The position numbers were made by a program, and so were the translations under genes. A DNA stretch of 64,000 bases, from the IMG/VR virus record IMGVR_UViG_3300028601_000020; one strand, given 5' to 3'. The notes beneath the pieces are model-generated. The model ran no database searches. It was given only the letters and a program-made list of their open reading frames with translations, and was not told the origin of the DNA. The stretch is from a virus (lineage: Duplodnaviria > Caudoviricetes). This document shows, piece by piece, positions 16,665 to 58,305 of this stretch; the stretch's first letter is position 1; every line of letters begins with the position of its first letter.

Positions 16665-16771
16665 TTGATTACAATTTCTGTGAAGTATAAATAATAGTAG
16701 AAAAATAAGACTGTTAGTAATTTGCAATTTGCTAATAAAAAATAAAATTTTGAACACAATAGGAGTACCAT

Positions 16772-17763: not shown

Positions 17764-19062
17764 ATGTCTGTTTACACAAACAATGTTGGTTTTGAAGAAC
17801 TTTCGGAAAAGTGGAATCCTATTCTTGAAGCAGAGTCAGAGACTCCGATTAAGGATGATTGGAAGAAGAAAGTAACTCTTCGTATGCTTGAGAATCAGGA
17901 AAAAGCAATGATCACTGAGGCTCCTACTAACGTCACTGGTGGCGTTGACAAATGGGATCCAGTTCTCATTTCAATGATTCGTAGAAATGCTCCGAAAATG
18001 ATCGCTTTTGACATTTTTGGTGTTCAGCCAATGTCCGGTCCTACTGGACTTATCTTTGCGATTCGTTCGCGTTATGTAGACGGGGACAAAGATCAGGCGG
18101 GTCCTGAAGCATTCTTTGATGAAGCAAATTCTGGCTTCGCTGGTGTTCGTTCTGACATGACCACTGCTGCATCTACTCCTACATGGACTGGTAATAGTGG
18201 CGGTACTCCTGACGGTACTTTGACTGATCCGACTTCTGTTGATTACGGTTATGGTACTGGTATGACAACTGCTGCTGCTGAATTGCTTGGTTCTACTAAT
18301 GCATGGAACGAGATGGCATTCAGCATTGAGAAAAGTTCTGTAACTGCTACTTCACGCGCATTGAAGGCAACTTGGACCCATGAACTGTCACAAGACCTTA
18401 AAGCGATTCATGGACTGGATGCTGATGCTGAACTTACCAATATTCTGTCTACTGAACTTCTGTCAGAAATCAACCGTGAACTTGTTCGTCGGTGCTACGT
18501 TCTTGCAAAACAGGGTGCATTGATCACTTCTGGTACAACCACAAACGGTGTATACGATCTTGACACTGACTCAAACGGTCGTTGGTCGGTTGAACGTTTC
18601 AAGGGTCTTATGTTCCAGATTGAAAAAGAAGCAAACCTTATTGCTATTCAGACTCGGCGCGGTAAAGGTAACTTCCTTATCGTTTCTGCTGATATCGCTT
18701 CCGCTCTTGCAATGACTGGTCTGCTTGACACTGGTAAGGGTTCTGATTATATGTCTCCGAACATCGTTGATCCTACTGGTATGACTTATATCGGTATGCT
18801 GAATGGTCGCACTAAGGTATTCATTGATCCTTATACTTCAATCAATTCTGTACTGGTTGGGTTCAAAGGATCAAATCAGTATGATGCTGGTGCTTTCTAT
18901 TGTCCTTACGTTCCATTCACTCTTTACAAGTCTCAGGGTCAGGATGACTTCCAGCCACGAATCGGCTTCAAGACTCGTTTTGGTTTTGCTGCTAACCCAT
19001 TCGGTGGCGGTATTGGAGCGAATCCTTACTTCCGTCTGTTCAAGGTTACAAACCTCGGTTAA
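17764..19062 (+). CDS. gp23: major capsid protein
   Basis: GVQPMSGPTGLIFA, SRALKA, QDLKAIHGLDA, EINRE, YCPYVP, FQPRIGFKTR; TATAAATA at 17682. Confidence 0.98.
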   Translation: MSVYTNNVGFEELSEKWNPILEAESETPIKDDWKKKVTLRMLENQEKAMITEAPTNVTGGVDKWDPVLISMIRRNAPKMIAFDIFGVQPMSGPTGLIFAIRSRYVDGDKDQAGPEAFFDEANSGFAGVRSDMTTAASTPTWTGNSGGTPDGTLTDPTSVDYGYGTGMTTAAAELLGSTNAWNEMAFSIEKSSVTATSRALKATWTHELSQDLKAIHGLDADAELTNILSTELLSEINRELVRRCYVLAKQGALITSGTTTNGVYDLDTDSNGRWSVERFKGLMFQIEKEANLIAIQTRRGKGNFLIVSADIASALAMTGLLDTGKGSDYMSPNIVDPTGMTYIGMLNGRTKVFIDPYTSINSVLVGFKGSNQYDAGAFYCPYVPFTLYKSQGQDDFQPRIGFKTRFGFAANPFGGGIGANPYFRLFKVTNLG

Positions 19063-19097
19063 TTTTATTGACAAAAATTAACCTTTGAAGTATGCTA

Positions 19098-19130
19098 AGA
19101 GGGTTGGGTAAAACCAACCCTCTTTTTTGT
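19098..19130 (+). terminator. intrinsic terminator after gp23
   Basis: AGAGGGTTGG...CCAACCCTCT followed by a T tract. Confidence 0.85.
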
Positions 19131-19181
19131 TGTAAAATTTTGCATGGATATCCAACATGATTTTTTGTAATTTTTCAAAAG

Positions 19182-19267
19182 TATAAATAATAGTATAATA
19201 ATGATCATTATGCAGTTTCTCCTTTCTCCTTGCGGGACCGGTCCTCCTTCCGGTCCCGCATTTTTTG
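19182..19267 (+). ncRNA. candidate late small RNA with anti-Shine-Dalgarno repeats
   Basis: TATAAATA (19182-19189), TTTCTCCTTTCTCCT, 11-bp GC stem with TCCTCCTT loop, T tract; no ORF of note. Confidence 0.5.
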
Positions 19268-19314
19268 TTTGACTTCCAAGATAAATACATATATATTGTG
19301 CGAATAGTTTAACA

Positions 19315-19620
19315 ATGTACCCCATAAGGAGTCCCATGAAAGAAATCATAACAACCTTGGATATTTTCGGAAAATTTGAAGAATACGAAGAGGATAGATC
19401 CATAGAATCGGGTATGTTTCAACTAAGTGAATATTCTCTTTATAACGAAGATGACGGTAAAGTTTATATCACCGATGATCTTGGAAGAACTCTTGCGCTT
19501 TCATTTACAAATGGAGGGTATGTGATTAATGATCTCATGAAACACAAACAATATGACACGGTAACCGATGTGCTTGATATGCTTATTTCTGCTGACTTGG
19601 TTGCCCCAGGAGAAAATTAA
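19315..19620 (+). CDS. hypothetical protein (likely start MKEII at 19336)
   Basis: AGGAG RBS before the internal ATG. Confidence 0.6.
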   Translation: MYPIRSPMKEIITTLDIFGKFEEYEEDRSIESGMFQLSEYSLYNEDDGKVYITDDLGRTLALSFTNGGYVINDLMKHKQYDTVTDVLDMLISADLVAPGEN

Positions 19621-20141
19621 TGCCAGATTTAGATTTAGGTAAAAAATTAAATATCACAAAAGACGCAAATTTTCATTTCGGTATTCCAGAATTACCGTTA
19701 TTCTCTCTGTTCTGTCAAACTCTTGATCTTCCAAGTGTAACTCTAGGGGTTGCAGAACAGCCAACTCCTTTGGTTGAAGTGAAGCATCCCGGAGATAAAA
19801 TTGTCTTTGAGGATCTTATGGTTTCGTTTCTTGTAGACGAAGAATTAACAAATTATCTTGAAGTTTTCAAGTGGATAATGCACTTAGGATATCCAAGAAG
19901 CACTGCACAGTATAGAAAACTTGTTCAACAAGATACTGTTTACACGCGAAAGCATGAATTACAATGTTCATTATTGACAAATAAAATGAATTTTAGACAG
20001 AGGGTTGTTTTTGTTGGTGCTTTTCCAACAAATCTTTCAACTTTGCCATTTATGACAAACAATGAAGGAGTTGGGCATTTAACTGCAACAGTAACTTTTG
20101 CCTACGATTATTTTTATTTTGAAAAAGACACGACGATTTAG
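19620..20141 (+). CDS. gp3: tail completion / tube terminator protein
   Basis: FCQTLDLPSVTLG, PGDKIVFEDL, FLVDEELTNY, AFPTNLS; before uvsY as in T4 relatives. Confidence 0.85.
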   Translation: MPDLDLGKKLNITKDANFHFGIPELPLFSLFCQTLDLPSVTLGVAEQPTPLVEVKHPGDKIVFEDLMVSFLVDEELTNYLEVFKWIMHLGYPRSTAQYRKLVQQDTVYTRKHELQCSLLTNKMNFRQRVVFVGAFPTNLSTLPFMTNNEGVGHLTATVTFAYDYFYFEKDTTI

Positions 20142-20149
20142 GAGGATGA

Positions 20150-20584
20150 ATGAGTCTTTATGAACTTACAAGCGAAGCAGAAAAAGACCTTGAAATTGAC
20201 AGGTCGCAACTTGATGTTGAGGCATTGCGAACCCCAAAAATCCATAATAGATGGCTCAAAAAGTTATATCAACGAAAAGACAAAATATTTGCGCTTGAAC
20301 TGAAGAAAAAAATTCTCATGAAAGAGAAGTGGCTTTATTATACTGGTAAAGCCAGCAATGAAACGTATGTTAAAGATGGCTCTTTTCATCTTAAATTGAT
20401 GAAGCAGGAAGTTCCCATGTTTGTTGAAGCTGATGAACAGATACAGGAAATTGATGTAAAAATTCATGTTGTTAAACAGGAAGTTGAATTTATTCAAAAG
20501 ACGATTGAAGAAGTGAACCGGCGACAATGGACTATTGGAAATGCGATTAAAGCATTAAAATTCATGAATGGTGAGTTTTCTTAA
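20150..20584 (+). CDS. uvsY: recombination mediator
   Basis: DLEID, PKIHNRWL, WLYYTGKA, WTIGNAI. Confidence 0.9.
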   Translation: MSLYELTSEAEKDLEIDRSQLDVEALRTPKIHNRWLKKLYQRKDKIFALELKKKILMKEKWLYYTGKASNETYVKDGSFHLKLMKQEVPMFVEADEQIQEIDVKIHVVKQEVEFIQKTIEEVNRRQWTIGNAIKALKFMNGEFS

Positions 20585-21356
20585 ATTTACAGTTATTAAA
20601 ATGCCACCTTTGCATGATGCCGCTTCCACCAATCTTACCACAATGAGGGCATATTAGTTTGGGTTTGGGTTTTCCTTTAGAAGCAATGCTCATTCTTTGT
20701 TTTGTTTCTTCTGATTTTTGTTTACCTTTATTAGCATTACTTATTTTTAGTTTTGTTTCTTCAGAAGGTTTTCTTCCCACACAAAGCATTCTCATCTTGT
20801 TTCTATATTCTTCATCTTTCCATTTTAACTTAGATTGTTCACTTATTTTTTGTTTTGTTTCATCGTTATGATGTTTTCCAAACAAAGGATGGCTTTCTTT
20901 ATTAGAAAGCCTTTCTTTTGCTTTAATGCTTAAAACGATTTTTTCATCTTCTGTTTTAGAAATTCCCTTATTCCATGCTTTTTTCCCTTTCATTCCAGAA
21001 GGTTTACCTTTATGATATTCTCCTATTTTTCTTTTTGATTCTTCAGTGTGAAATGTTATTCCCAAACCACCAATCATAAGATTATAAGTGTCTTTGCTAT
21101 TTACAAATTTCTCATTGACTATTTCTTTCTCTTTGGCGAATGCTTCTTCTGGTGTGTAGAAGACATGAAGTGTTTCACGAATGAAATTCTTTTTACCGTA
21201 CTTCTTTATTGCATTGATGAGAAGAATGCCTGAACCGAAATATCCATCAAATAAAATGGGGAAATGAAATTTCTGTTTATGTTTGCCAATATAAAATTTT
21301 CCGTTGACAAGATTGGTAGTTTTGTATACAATATAAATATGTTTAGATTCTGACAT
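20562..21356 (-). CDS. GIY-YIG (Seg-like) homing endonuclease
   Basis: YIVYKTTNLVNGKFYIGKH...YFGSG; NUMOD3 repeats; C-terminal CPHCGK...WHFNNC. Confidence 0.9.
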   Translation of the reverse strand: MSESKHIYIVYKTTNLVNGKFYIGKHKQKFHFPILFDGYFGSGILLINAIKKYGKKNFIRETLHVFYTPEEAFAKEKEIVNEKFVNSKDTYNLMIGGLGITFHTEESKRKIGEYHKGKPSGMKGKKAWNKGISKTEDEKIVLSIKAKERLSNKESHPLFGKHHNDETKQKISEQSKLKWKDEEYRNKMRMLCVGRKPSEETKLKISNANKGKQKSEETKQRMSIASKGKPKPKLICPHCGKIGGSGIMQRWHFNNCKFKKTHHS

Positions 21357-21735: not shown

Positions 21736-23313
21736 GTGAATTCTGATGAAATTCATGTGGCATTATTAAATGCCACATACATGCAAATTGCGGCCGATGA
21801 AGGGATACTTCGGGAACTTCATGAATATTTTACTTTTGATGTTCCCGGAGCAAAGTTCATGCCGCTTTATAAACACAAGGTTTGGGACGGGAAAAAACGT
21901 CTTTTTAACCTTGCCAATCAAACTTTGTACACAGGGTTGTTTTTTAAGCTGGAGGAATTCGCAGGATCGCGCCAGTTAAAGATTATTTCTTATGACGAGT
22001 CTCTAGTTGCGCTTGATAAGAAATGCAATACAAGCGATTTTAAGGCGTTTCTAGGGGATTTGTCTCCTCAGTCAAAAAATGAAGACATTAAACCTCATTT
22101 GTATCAAGAGGAAGCAATCCTTTATTGCATAAACAATCCTCGTTCAACTGTTGTATCCCCAACATCTTCCGGAAAGTCTCTTATCATCTATTCATTGATT
22201 CGCTGGTATCTTAATCAGAACCCGTCAATGAATATCCTTCTGGTCGTTCCTACTGTTTCTTTGGTTCTTCAGATGTATTCTGATTTTCAAGATTATTCAA
22301 CAAAAAATGGTTTCAATACAGAAAAACATTGCCATAAAATCTATAGCGGACAAGAAAAGAACACCAACAAGCCTGTTATTATTTCAACGTGGCAGTCCAT
22401 GCAAAATATGAAAAAGCAATATTTTCAGCGTTTTGATATGGTAATTGTTGATGAAGTTCATGGAGCAGCATCAAAAGAGTTGTCCAGCATCATGGAATCC
22501 TCTTCTAATGCTTATATTCGCTATGGGTTTACTGGGACCCTTCAAGACACAAAATGTCATAAACTTGTTATCCTCGGTCATTTTGGTGCAGAAAAGAAAG
22601 TAATTGAAACAAAGGAATTGATGGATAAAGGATTTATCTCTCAATTAATGATAAACTGCATCGTTTTTGAGTATACAGAAGAAAGTGCAATTGAATTAAG
22701 GAAAAAAATTACTGCCGCGAAGAAAGGCAAAAATAAAAAATCTGTCGCTGCAATAGGATATGCAACGGAAATTGACCATATTGTTTCTCATGAAGACAGG
22801 ATGAATAATCTTGTAGCCTTGTCTTTGTCTTTGAAAAATAATTCTCTTATATTGTTCAATTTAGTTGACAAACATGGAAAAGTGATTTACAATAGAATAA
22901 AATATGAAATAGAAAATCGCAAAATTGATAAAAAGGTGTATTTTATTGATGGAAGTGTGAAAGCAGAGACAAGAGAAGATTACAGAGCCTTGATGGAAAA
23001 GAATGATAACATTATTTTAGTGGCATCATACGGAACAACGTCAACTGGCGTTTCAATAAAAAATATCCACAACGTTATTTTTGCAAGTCCGTCAAAGTCA
23101 AAAATCAAAGTTTTACAGTCAATTGGCCGTGGGCTAAGAAAAAACGAAAATAAAGACAGAGTGGTACTTTATGACATAGTTGATAAGATTTCATATACGA
23201 CTAGACAAGGGAACGAAAAAACAAATTATGTGTTTCATCATTTTTTAGAAAGGTGGAAAATATATAAACATGAAGGGTTTAACTATAAAATTCATTCACG
23301 AAAGATTAAATGA
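21736..23313 (+). CDS. uvsW: SF2 helicase
   Basis: WDGKKRLF, SPTSSGKS, DEVH, GFTGT, QSIGRGLR. Confidence 0.95.
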   Translation: MNSDEIHVALLNATYMQIAADEGILRELHEYFTFDVPGAKFMPLYKHKVWDGKKRLFNLANQTLYTGLFFKLEEFAGSRQLKIISYDESLVALDKKCNTSDFKAFLGDLSPQSKNEDIKPHLYQEEAILYCINNPRSTVVSPTSSGKSLIIYSLIRWYLNQNPSMNILLVVPTVSLVLQMYSDFQDYSTKNGFNTEKHCHKIYSGQEKNTNKPVIISTWQSMQNMKKQYFQRFDMVIVDEVHGAASKELSSIMESSSNAYIRYGFTGTLQDTKCHKLVILGHFGAEKKVIETKELMDKGFISQLMINCIVFEYTEESAIELRKKITAAKKGKNKKSVAAIGYATEIDHIVSHEDRMNNLVALSLSLKNNSLILFNLVDKHGKVIYNRIKYEIENRKIDKKVYFIDGSVKAETREDYRALMEKNDNIILVASYGTTSTGVSIKNIHNVIFASPSKSKIKVLQSIGRGLRKNENKDRVVLYDIVDKISYTTRQGNEKTNYVFHHFLERWKIYKHEGFNYKIHSRKIK

Positions 23314-26623: not shown

Positions 26624-27352
26624 ATGAAGTTGATAAGTAAATTCCATGATTATTATGATTCTGTTGCGTATTCAGACGAACCAATTTTTATCAGAAAAAT
26701 GGAAATTGTTGGCCATGCCAATGTTTCTGGTGATTTAGTTGATAAATCACTTATATTGATGGATGATTTTCATTCAATGTCATATTTTAGAAATGAAGGC
26801 ATAGGAACAATAAGTGAAAGAATTGTTTCTGATATATTGTGTTTTTGTGGAAAAATGTATCCAATTATGAAAATAGGAGATCAATATATTTGCGATCCTT
26901 ACAAACTTCAAAAATATTGTGATGAAAAGGGATATAAAATAAGTAAATATTTCTGGCCGATTAACAAACGAAATAAAAGTGATGCAATAGAACAACTAAT
27001 TACTGATATTGTAAAAACAAACAATGGAGATAATCTTGCATATAATTTGAACGTTGTCTTGAATTCTCCTATTGTTATTATTTCAAAATGCAAAAATTTG
27101 AAATATCCGACAGATCGGAGACAATATATTCAATATGAAATAAATTCTAAACTTGAATTATTGAATTTTCAGACAATCAAGACGCCTTGGCAGACATATC
27201 AAGAAATAGAAATGTTTTTGGGTACGATTTTAGTTGAAAATCAGGATAAACCTGCTATAATGAACGATGAATTAAAACGGGACTCGAAAGGGTTTAATGA
27301 ATGGTCATTCAAACAAGTTGGGCCTAAGAAAAGGAAAAGGAGAAAAAAATGA
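26624..27352 (+). CDS. hypothetical phage protein
   Basis: MKLISKFHDYYD...YQEIEMFL...KGFNEWSFK. Confidence 0.65.
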   Translation: MKLISKFHDYYDSVAYSDEPIFIRKMEIVGHANVSGDLVDKSLILMDDFHSMSYFRNEGIGTISERIVSDILCFCGKMYPIMKIGDQYICDPYKLQKYCDEKGYKISKYFWPINKRNKSDAIEQLITDIVKTNNGDNLAYNLNVVLNSPIVIISKCKNLKYPTDRRQYIQYEINSKLELLNFQTIKTPWQTYQEIEMFLGTILVENQDKPAIMNDELKRDSKGFNEWSFKQVGPKKRKRRKK

Positions 27353-29673: not shown

Positions 29674-30099
29674 ATGAAGAAAATTAAAATGAGTACCGAA
29701 CAGTGGTTTGATCAGGCAATTGAAATTCTTCTTCCTGAAGACGATTCGTTTCTGATTGTCAAGGAAACGCTCACCCGAATTGGTATTGCGTCAATGAAGG
29801 AAGGTCAGAAACGCCTTGCACAGACATGCCATATTCTCCAGAAGCGTGGAAAGTTTTATATCGTTCATTTCAAGGAACTGTTGCTGCTTGACGGAAAAGA
29901 GGCGAACTTTTCTGAAGAGGATGCTATGCGCCGCAACACCATTGCTCAGATGCTTGAAGATTGGGGACTTGTAGAAGTGGTTGATATTGACAAGATTCAG
30001 GATCAGTTGAAACATTCCTCTGTCAAGGTCGTTCCGTTTAAAGAAAAAGATAAGTGGGAACTTGTTCCCAAGTACAATATTGGCGGACGCAAGAATTAA
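29674..30099 (+). CDS. regA: translational repressor
   Basis: FLIVKETLTRIGIAS, QTCHILQKRGKFYIVHFKEL, RRNTIA, WELVPKY. Confidence 0.95.
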   Translation: MKKIKMSTEQWFDQAIEILLPEDDSFLIVKETLTRIGIASMKEGQKRLAQTCHILQKRGKFYIVHFKELLLLDGKEANFSEEDAMRRNTIAQMLEDWGLVEVVDIDKIQDQLKHSSVKVVPFKEKDKWELVPKYNIGGRKN

Positions 30100-30813: not shown

Positions 30814-31011
30814 ATGAAGCCCAAATATGACATTTCTGTGCAGTTGATTGGTGAGAACGGTAATGCATTTTATATTATCGGAAAGGTTCGCAAAGAAATG
30901 AAGCGAAACGGTGTTCCTAATAATGAAATTGATTTGTTCATAAACGAAGCAATGTCAGGAGATTACAATAACCTTCTCCGTACTTGCATGAAATATGTCA
31001 ACGTTGAATAA
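30814..31011 (+). CDS. conserved small early protein
   Basis: LIGENGNAF...EAMSGDYNNLL; early promoter at 30738. Confidence 0.75.
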   Translation: MKPKYDISVQLIGENGNAFYIIGKVRKEMKRNGVPNNEIDLFINEAMSGDYNNLLRTCMKYVNVE

Positions 31012-57540: not shown

Positions 57541-58305
57541 TTATTGTTGAGGACAATTGTTAAAATGCCATCTTCTCATTGCTGGTATTCCGCCTGATTT
57601 TCCGCAATGGGGGCAAACAATTTTAGGTTTTATTTTTCCTTTGTTTTTTGATTGTTTTCCTAATTTAGCAAGTCTCGTTTTATTCCTTGTTTCTTCTGAA
57701 ATATGTTTACCAAACATAGGATTATTTTCACCAGATTTTGCTTTGCTCATTTTTTGTTTTGTTTCTTCAGACATGACTTTTCCATTATGAGAATCGCTCA
57801 TTTTTTGTTTAGTTTCTGAAGAGTGATTTTTTCCAAACAGAGGATGATTTACCCCAGTTTTTGCGATTCTCATTTTTTGTTTTGCTTCTTCAGACATGAC
57901 TTTTCCTTTATGTGCTTTACTTAATCGCTGTCTTGTTTCTTCTGATTTTATTATGCCTTTATGAGAATTGCTCATTTTTTGTTTAGTTTCTGAAGAAATT
58001 TTTGAAGCACCATAACCGCCTCCAATAACATTATATGTGTCGGTACGATTAATAAAATTTTCATCAACAAGTTCTTTCTCTTTCTGGTATGCTTTCTCAG
58101 GAGTATAAAAGACATGAAGAGTTTCACGGATGAAATTCTCTTTGCCGTATTTCTTTATTGCTCTGTTGATTCCAACCCCTGAACCGAAATATCCATCAAA
58201 TAAAATGGGGAAATGAAATTTCTGTTTATGTTTGCCAATATAAAATTTTCCGTTGACAAGATTGGTAGTTTTGTATACAATATAAATATGTTTAGATTCT
58301 GACAT
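57541..58305 (-). CDS. GIY-YIG (Seg-like) homing endonuclease
   Basis: First 43 aa identical to 20562..21356; NUMOD3 repeats; CPHCGK...WHFNNC. Confidence 0.9.
   Translation of the reverse strand: MSESKHIYIVYKTTNLVNGKFYIGKHKQKFHFPILFDGYFGSGVGINRAIKKYGKENFIRETLHVFYTPEKAYQKEKELVDENFINRTDTYNVIGGGYGASKISSETKQKMSNSHKGIIKSEETRQRLSKAHKGKVMSEEAKQKMRIAKTGVNHPLFGKNHSSETKQKMSDSHNGKVMSEETKQKMSKAKSGENNPMFGKHISEETRNKTRLAKLGKQSKNKGKIKPKIVCPHCGKSGGIPAMRRWHFNNCPQQ

Follow-up and report, generated by a model that had tools for sequence, protein, structure and literature searches.

A conserved anti-Shine-Dalgarno element downstream of the major capsid gene in uncultured T4-like phages is a candidate late small RNA

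The locus downstream of gp23

The stretch of DNA analyzed here (64,000 nucleotides, referred to as the window; G+C content 34.7%) comes from an uncultured T4-like phage whose major capsid protein gp23 is about 53% identical to that of its best phage relatives in GenBank. All members of its clade, defined by a gp23 at least 75% identical to that of the window, are uncultured. The element under study, referred to as the unit, follows the terminase, sheath, tube, portal, protease, scaffold and gp23 genes, and the gene order continues 3' of gp23 with a 94-aa open reading frame (ORF), a gp3-like tail gene, uvsY, a homing endonuclease gene on the minus strand and a uvsW-like helicase gene. The features of the locus are as follows.

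17764..19062, plus strand: gp23 major capsid gene, 432 aa (PHROG 138, E = 1e-137)
19068..19131, plus strand: PeSL-like cassette border, a sigma70-type promoter (TTGACA-17-TATGCT) leading straight into a terminator hairpin and T run
19097-19124, plus strand: hairpin of terminator 1, followed by the T run
19143..19160, plus strand: remnant of a DUF559 gene (last 16 nt and stop codon), recognized by comparison with the intact gene in relatives
19182..19196, plus strand: late promoter TATAAATA (19182-19189) with the extended consensus of the clade
19195..19266, plus strand: predicted RNA of ~72 nt (minimum free energy, MFE, -24.5 kcal/mol; 5' half unpaired)
19199..19215, plus strand: 5' leader with palindrome and ATWATG motif
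19199-19210, plus strand: palindrome TAATGATCATTA
19216..19231, plus strand: single-stranded CU tract TTTCTCCTTTCTCCTT, P(unpaired) 0.93
19231..19260, plus strand: terminator hairpin, 11 bp, loop TCCTCCTT
19242-19249, plus strand: 8-nt loop of this hairpin, UCCUCCUU
19261..19266, plus strand: terminator U tract (T6)
19269..19297, plus strand: promoter of the downstream genes, TTGACT-17-TATATT, with GATAAATA (19280-19287) in the spacer
19325..19620, plus strand: Shine-Dalgarno (SD) sequence TAAGGAG and 94-aa ORF of unknown function, a possible cis target of the CU tract in a readthrough RNA
19620..20141, plus strand: gp3-like tail gene (PHROG 45 / PF23849), the anchor for finding relatives

The window carries two homing endonuclease genes, both on the minus strand (20562-21356 and 57541-58305), with near-identical start regions; their repeated leaders near 21332 and 58281 carry late promoters on both strands.

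An initial annotation, made from the letters of the window, had proposed that a perfect late promoter directly after the gp23 terminator drives a small RNA built from anti-SD repeats. The arrangement itself was confirmed: the gp23 stop codon at 19062 is followed by terminator 1 and then by TATAAATA, and the palindrome, tract, 11-bp stem, loop and T tract are all in place, as are the three CUCCU motifs (CTCCT at 19219, 19226 and 19244). The extension TATAAATAATAGTA of the promoter is identical to that of the late promoters at 16686 (ahead of gp22) and 4326 (ahead of another structural gene). In T4 late promoters TATAAATA occupies positions -13 to -6, and by analogy with this spacing the RNA would start near 19195. 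In the CU tract UUUCUCCUU, which is exactly complementary to AAGGAGAAA, occurs twice in tandem. The cluster of three CTCCT motifs is the sole one on either strand of the window, and the unit hairpin has the only CU loop among the terminators of the window. With nine G-C pairs out of 11 followed by T6, the hairpin has the features that define an intrinsic (Rho-independent) terminator, and equivalent terminator hairpins are present in all lineages described below. The 83-nt stretch containing the unit folds at -28.2 kcal/mol (z = -6.4 relative to shuffled sequences).

The best Rfam scores were 26.1, 24.3 and 16.6 bits, against gathering thresholds of 50-65, for families including ncr982, NmsRb and CcsR1. 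The units of lineages B, C and E (L164, L187 and L193) gave no match in Rfam, and a search of GenBank phages with the DNA of the unit returned no match.

The palindrome to which the initial annotation had drawn attention is present but unremarkable. It occurs once in the window (0.62 copies expected), is broken in the close relative L085 and is absent from the lineages other than that of the window, and it was rejected as a functional site. By inspection, no upstream sequence is complementary to the 5' arm of the hairpin, and an antiterminator or riboswitch-like leader was discarded as well.

Conservation and history of the unit

The close relatives of the window (lineage A), whose flanking sequences are 92-98% identical to it, display three states of the locus. 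In the first (G001, IMG/VR 3300039184_000103) the gp23 stop codon is followed by 45 nt with an unrelated hairpin and then by a unit identical to that of the window from TAATGATCATTA onward. Neither the late promoter nor the first terminator is present in G001, so the unit serves there as the gp23 3' untranslated region (3'UTR) and terminator. In the second state (L084, L085 and L165-L167) a cassette has been inserted between gp23 and the unit, consisting in order of a sigma70-type promoter with terminator 1, a 212-aa ORF (DUF559, endonuclease-like) and the late promoter. The window represents the third state and is evidently, from its gene remnant, a deletion derivative of the second: a deletion of ~650 bp took the ORF and retained the flanking promoter and terminator and the late promoter (window 19143-19160 compared with L085 3206-3844). 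Within the unit, an A-U pair of the stem has become G-C in L167, a compensatory change, and the loop of L085 has changed from UCCUCCUU to UUCUCCUU (C to U) with CUCCU retained. Conservation of the unit within lineage A is 96%, compared with 93-96% for adjacent coding DNA.

Further lineages were located using gp3 as an anchor, and four were found beyond lineage A.

Lineage B (L164, IMG/VR 3300008255_000331): GATAAATAATAG upstream with a 24-nt spacer; tract UUCUCCCUCCU; hairpin with a 14-bp A/U-rich stem and loop CGCCUCC
Lineage B' (G003, 3300038536_000028): perfect TATAAATA upstream; tract UCUCUCCCUCCU; hairpin as in B with two compensatory swaps
Lineage C (L187, 3300040801_002488): gp23 stop codon 30 nt before the tract, no late promoter; tract UCUCUCCUCCUU; hairpin with a 12-bp stem and UUCG-type loop
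Lineage E (L193, 3300042874_000291): TATAAATAATAATG upstream; tract CCUCCUCUCCU; two-tier hairpin with apical loop UCCUCUCCU

The gp23 proteins of these four lineages are 75-77% identical to that of the window, and the unit, which the initial annotation had suggested looking for in related phages, is present in all five lineages found with a gp23 at least 75% identical to that of the window. Identity of gp3 between the lineages is only 43-58%, a distance at which neutral sequence is saturated. Of the lineages that lack the unit, the nearest (L194) has a gp23 identity of 58%. Protein matches gave three more lineages with the gp3 homologues P0002 (68%), P0003 (54%) and P0004 (52%), which are encoded on Logan contigs; the comparison of the unit covers the five lineages above.

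All five lineages share an unpaired pyrimidine tract of 10-16 nt with CUCC or CCUC that abuts a strong hairpin and U tract, and four of the five also have a CU-rich loop, which is missing in C. The stems of different lineages have no sequence in common, yet they pair perfectly. Between B and B' two compensatory swaps are seen in the stem while the tract and loop are unchanged, in flanks that are ~60% identical with indels. The tract is predicted to be unpaired in every lineage (P 0.75-0.95), as are the CU loops of A, B and E (P 0.6-0.9), and B' keeps the loop sequence of B. Unpaired C-rich motifs of the kind expected in SD-targeting small RNAs (sRNAs) with C-rich seeds (RsaE/RoxS type) are thus predicted.

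An ATWATG motif precedes the CU tract by 4-9 nt in all lineages (window 19207-19215, L164 1339-1347, L187 1031-1039, L193 668-676) and overlaps weak -10-like hexamers, which makes a shorter sigma70-driven RNA starting at the tract conceivable. A plus-strand mini-ORF from the conserved ATG was considered and dropped: the encoded peptides are unrelated, no SD is present, and L193 reads ATG AGT TAA (two codons). A small protein gene was likewise rejected, as the plus-strand frames vary from lineage to lineage and the one on the minus strand lacks conservation.

The initial annotation had also offered the opposite strand as an alternative, a CsrA sponge with GGA motifs in a loop. A functional minus strand, whether as a CsrA-type GGA sponge or as a small gene using the AAGGAG repeats as ribosome sites, could draw on AAGGAGGA in the loop and on AAGGAGAAAGGAGAAA ahead of an ATG at 19208 (minus). 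The frame starting at this ATG, however, has 37 aa in the window and, judged by eye, an unrelated 23 aa in G001 in spite of 98% flank identity, and was rejected as a candidate gene; there is no such ORF in L187, L164 or L193, and no minus-strand promoter or terminator was found. The late promoter (where present), the T tract and the conservation are all on the plus strand, and the sponge was therefore rejected; a function of the opposite strand in any form is highly improbable.

The specificity of the arrangement was assessed with a hand-written descriptor (a pyrimidine run of at least 9 nt with CTCC or CCTC, a hairpin within a few bases, and a T tract) instead of a covariance model, because MAFFT was unable to align the rewritten stems. 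On both strands of 1.15 Mb of fetched DNA the descriptor returned only the lineages that carry the unit and one spurious match. The background of such CU runs is 0.23-0.33 per kb, so that chance placement directly at a terminator is expected at ~1 in 1000 per terminator. A pattern scan of IMG/VR returned the same clade only, plus five chance matches, and a second one returned at least 109 further stretches with no new lineage after the hairpin filter among the matches listed. L084-L086 were the only additions from a metagenome scan, and a pattern scan of genome contigs gave no match. Among the gp23 terminators of 112 T4-like relatives with 50-58% gp23 identity, no true CU tract was found within 28 nt before the terminator; these terminators have a short stem and mostly a UUCG loop, and three show a weak CTCTC match.

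Other forms of the gp23 3' end were seen in the same material. Most marine T4-like relatives (loci L087-L163) have a two-hairpin 3' end at 25-55 nt after the gp23 stop codon, made up of a small GGGTTAACCC-type hairpin and a terminator with a purine arm, a pyrimidine arm and a UUCG tetraloop. In L190-L192, distant relatives whose gp3 shares 26-31% identity, CCUCCCC/GGGGAGG forms the stem of the gp23 terminator itself (about 1110-1135). An ATG follows there immediately on a late promoter (GATAAATAATAGT/GATAAATATTACT), about 70 nt ahead of the gp3 homology; should gp3 begin at this ATG, its late mRNA would be nearly leaderless.

Promoters around the unit

Where gp23 lies directly upstream of the unit (G001 and L187) there is no separate promoter, and the unit hairpin is the only gp23 terminator, so that parent gene and candidate RNA share a terminator as in 3'UTR-derived sRNAs. 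Where other genes intervene (window, L085 and L167 in A; L164 in B; G003 in B'; L193 in E), the tract is preceded by a late promoter at a distance of 19-26 nt, and the intervening genes differ in each case. The late promoter of lineage E matches the extended late consensus of that phage. Judging from these positions, late transcription reaches the unit in every lineage. The own late promoter assigned to the unit by the initial annotation accordingly exists in the window and in lineages B, B' and E, but not in G001 and L187, where the unit is the 3'UTR and terminator of gp23.

Directly after the unit lies a conserved, strong sigma70-type pair (TTGACA/TATAAT) with an embedded late-type NATAAATA. 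It matches in 12/12 positions in L164 and in 11/12 in both L187 and L193, and the same arrangement is found in G003. These dual promoters (L164 1429-1456, L187 1111-1139, L193 776-804; one was also seen on the minus strand of L391 at about 225-195) suggest that the 94-aa ORF gene, the gp3 gene or both are expressed early as well as late. Since the next gene has a strong promoter of its own, it does not need the late promoter upstream of the unit, which appears to serve the unit itself. In lineage A this late promoter belongs to an indel cassette that G001 lacks, and it may therefore have arrived by chance with mobile DNA.

The tract might instead act in cis. In RNAs that start at gp23 or at the late promoter and read through the terminator, it could fold onto the SD of the next gene and keep that gene untranslated, so that its output would depend on its own promoter alone. 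The promoter of the next gene always follows right after the unit, the SD of that gene is AAGGAG in A, B, B' and E, and folding of predicted readthrough RNAs pairs the tract with that SD region in every lineage tested (1.9-5.4 bp expected), with the pairing present in the MFE structure of the window, L085, L164, L187 and L193. A folding program, however, will pair any anti-SD with an SD on the same RNA, and readthrough of so strong a terminator should be rare. A late promoter just before a terminator and insulator would be pointless and yet is found in four lineages, the CU loop would have no role (0.00 expected pairs with the SD), and lineage C offers only 4 bp (GAGG/CCUC). We consider such translational insulation unlikely.

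A second alternative dispenses with an RNA-level function of the CU tract and regards the unit as the gp23 terminator within a terminator/promoter composite at an indel hotspot. Composites of this kind, terminator hairpins with sigma70-type promoters that flank accessory-gene indels, are described for T4-like phages as PeSLs (PMC2839356, PMC4122927). By the definition given in the latter, the element at 19068-19131 and the hairpin with promoter at 19231-19297 are both PeSL-like, with indels at their borders. The site is an indel hotspot with different genes inserted in each lineage, as the same sources report for PeSLs, and the 19068-19131 element is itself absent from G001. The hairpin and U tract are a terminator by any scan, and the sole gp23 terminator in G001 and L187. 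What a plain boundary leaves unexplained is the constancy of the tract and CU loop amid rewritten stems and flanks, the use of large loops of 7-9 nt where related phages use UUCG, the absence of the tract at the 112 other gp23 terminators and the late promoter directly before a terminator. It is a quite unlikely account of the unit. On this comparative evidence the unit appears to be more than a terminator, namely a conserved, oriented element with anti-SD sequence that is predicted to be unpaired.

Ribosome-binding sites, predicted pairing and candidate function

The initial annotation had observed that the complement of the tract serves as ribosome-binding site of early-region genes. This was borne out for AAGGAGAAA at the genes starting at 30814, 31022, 41361 and 47662 (given there as 47661), as was the use of AAGAGG by gp18 (6501), gp21 (15987) and gp23 (17764). 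TTTCTCCTT or its complement occurs 11 times in the window (1.75 expected), and eight of these occurrences are AAGGAGAAA on the plus strand just before start codons.

For a comparison of gene classes, the late class was defined as the structural genes at 4.3-19.1 kb together with genes that have TATAAATA within 120 nt upstream, and the early class as the genes at 26.3-53 kb without such a promoter, a block that includes gp45, the clamp-loader subunit gp62, RegA and dUTPase. Using the gene calls made here, with starts picked by an SD-strength heuristic, GGAG sites precede 4/20 late and 32/49 early genes of the window (Fisher p = 0.001), and GAGG-only sites precede 12/20 late and 3/49 early genes. 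The split between early GGAG and late GAGG sites in the window is statistically real. GGAG is also found at some late genes (gp22, gp19 and gp3).

The median duplex energy with the tract is -6.9 kcal/mol for late and -9.3 kcal/mol for early genes (p = 0.0095). The weak predicted partners include gp23 (-4.8 kcal/mol) and gp18 (-4.6), the strongest are gp45 (start at 27349; -17.7) and UvsW (start at 21736; -16.0), and about a dozen start regions have perfect complementarity of 9-11 nt to the tract. An anti-SD tract pairs with any SD by construction, however, and these target predictions are therefore weak evidence and near circular. The tracts of B, C and E contain CCUC and could also pair with GAGG, so that discrimination between early and late genes is supported for the window only.

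The reading that accounts best for these observations, to which we assign a probability of roughly 45%, is that the unit gives rise to an anti-SD RNA, late or derived from the gp23 3'UTR, that represses GGAG-type sites in trans. A small noncoding RNA of about 50-80 nt would be made late in infection, either from its own late promoter (window, B, B' and E) or as the stable 3' end of the gp23 mRNA (G001 and C), a very abundant parent. The tract (10-16 nt) and, in four of the five lineages, the CU loop would expose unpaired the anti-SD sequence of 16S rRNA (CUCC/CCUC), which would pair with GGAG-type sites, in the window the AAGGAGAAA sites found mainly at early and replication genes. By competing with the 30S subunit, this pairing would shut down early messages late in infection, while the main late messages (gp18 and gp23) with their GAGG sites would pair poorly. 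The accumulation of the RNA, its action in trans and the choice of repressed messages are the parts of this model that we infer. Part of what the initial annotation had proposed, a late RNA that blocks AGGAG-type sites, may hence stand: the conserved and oriented anti-SD sequence, its predicted unpaired state, the feed by late transcription and the division of ribosome sites are all consistent with it, but for discrimination between early and late genes the support comes from the window only. A point against anti-SD repression in trans is that the phage already encodes a RegA translational repressor; the homologue lies at 29674-30099 of the window (PF01818, E = 2e-41) and adjoins the gp45 and clamp-loader genes.

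A stronger form of this model, in which an abundant late mimic of the 16S tail acts as a global translation switch that masks the GGAG sites of early (and residual host) messages and lets late GAGG messages escape, is somewhat unlikely. Such a switch would amount to an RNA counterpart of the logic of the T4 nuclease RegB and, as the 3'UTR of the capsid gene, would be hard-wired to the expression of that gene.

The anti-SD sequence could also act on a protein instead of on messages. The tract contains CUCCUUUCU, which resembles the usual 16S 3' tail (a generic tail, which may not be that of the host), and an abundant RNA that mimics this tail or offers a pyrimidine-rich single strand might titrate ribosomal protein S1, Hfq or some host nuclease or toxin with recognition of CUCCU-like sequence. 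The motifs are predicted to be unpaired or are presented in a loop, and in T4 the S1 protein is already linked to the control of cleavage in SD regions (PMC1702504, PMC3014915). The tracts nevertheless differ between lineages more than is usual for a protein site, and a decoy is improbable.

Should anti-SD repression in trans be correct, it would provide a simple mechanism for the switch from early to late expression at the level of translation, it would explain the different SD variants of early and late genes in these phages, and the 3'UTR of the capsid mRNA would double as a regulator.

To our knowledge, nearly all known phage small RNAs belong to temperate phages, and they have one target each. 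In phages P1 and P7 the c4 antisense RNA blocks translation by pairing of its loops around a ribosome-binding site (PMC12197685); it has one target (ant) and belongs to temperate phages, whereas the unit carries a generic anti-SD and belongs to lytic-type T4-like phages. The 2025 review that describes c4 contains neither "phage T4" nor "lytic phage" in its text, and no published generic anti-ribosome-site RNA of a T4-like phage was found in the literature.

Among bacterial RNAs the unit bears comparison with the sRNAs with C-rich or CU-rich seeds, RsaE/RoxS of Firmicutes (PMC6158497, PMC8216469) and CcsR1, the "CCUCCUCCC" RNA (Rfam RF02791). Common to all are a short RNA ending in an intrinsic terminator and two to three unpaired or looped C-rich motifs complementary to many G-rich sites. 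There is no similarity of sequence or model (best Rfam scores of 16-26 bits), and in contrast to RsaE/RoxS and CcsR1 the unit is phage-encoded, is associated with a T4-type late promoter or a capsid mRNA 3'UTR, and has the full anti-SD (CUCCU) as its motif instead of UCCC or CCC. Bacterial sRNAs derived from 3'UTRs have an internal promoter of their own or are processed from the parent mRNA. As in these sRNAs, the seed lies directly 5' of the terminator of the parent gene, and loci without a promoter (G001, L187) occur alongside loci with a dedicated one (window, L085, L167, L164, G003, L193); unlike in bacteria, the parent is a phage capsid mRNA.

T4 itself separates early from late messages by the endoribonuclease RegB, which cuts the GGAG of early ribosome sites and so inactivates these messages; every late transcript is resistant (PMC3014915, PMC1702504). 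The consensus of strong RegB sites is GGAGRAYARAA with an A-rich 3' side (PMC3014915); the early sites of the window (AAGGAGAAAAA) resemble it, and the late genes of the window mostly have GAGG. RegB is, however, a protein nuclease that acts early, whereas the unit would give a late-made RNA. Tests of 20 early proteins from the 64-kb window gave no RegB homologue.

With respect to PeSLs, the unit differs in its pyrimidine tract, anti-SD loop and associated late promoter, which the available text of PMC4122927 does not mention. PeSL-like borders at the 5' edge of an inserted cassette are also present at L085 3108-3175 and at about 1165-1230 in L194, the relative with 58% gp23 identity. In lineage B, small accessory genes inserted after gp23 are flanked by repeated early-promoter cassettes (TTGACA, spacer, TATACT and a shared leader; L086 4520-4600 and 4905-4985).
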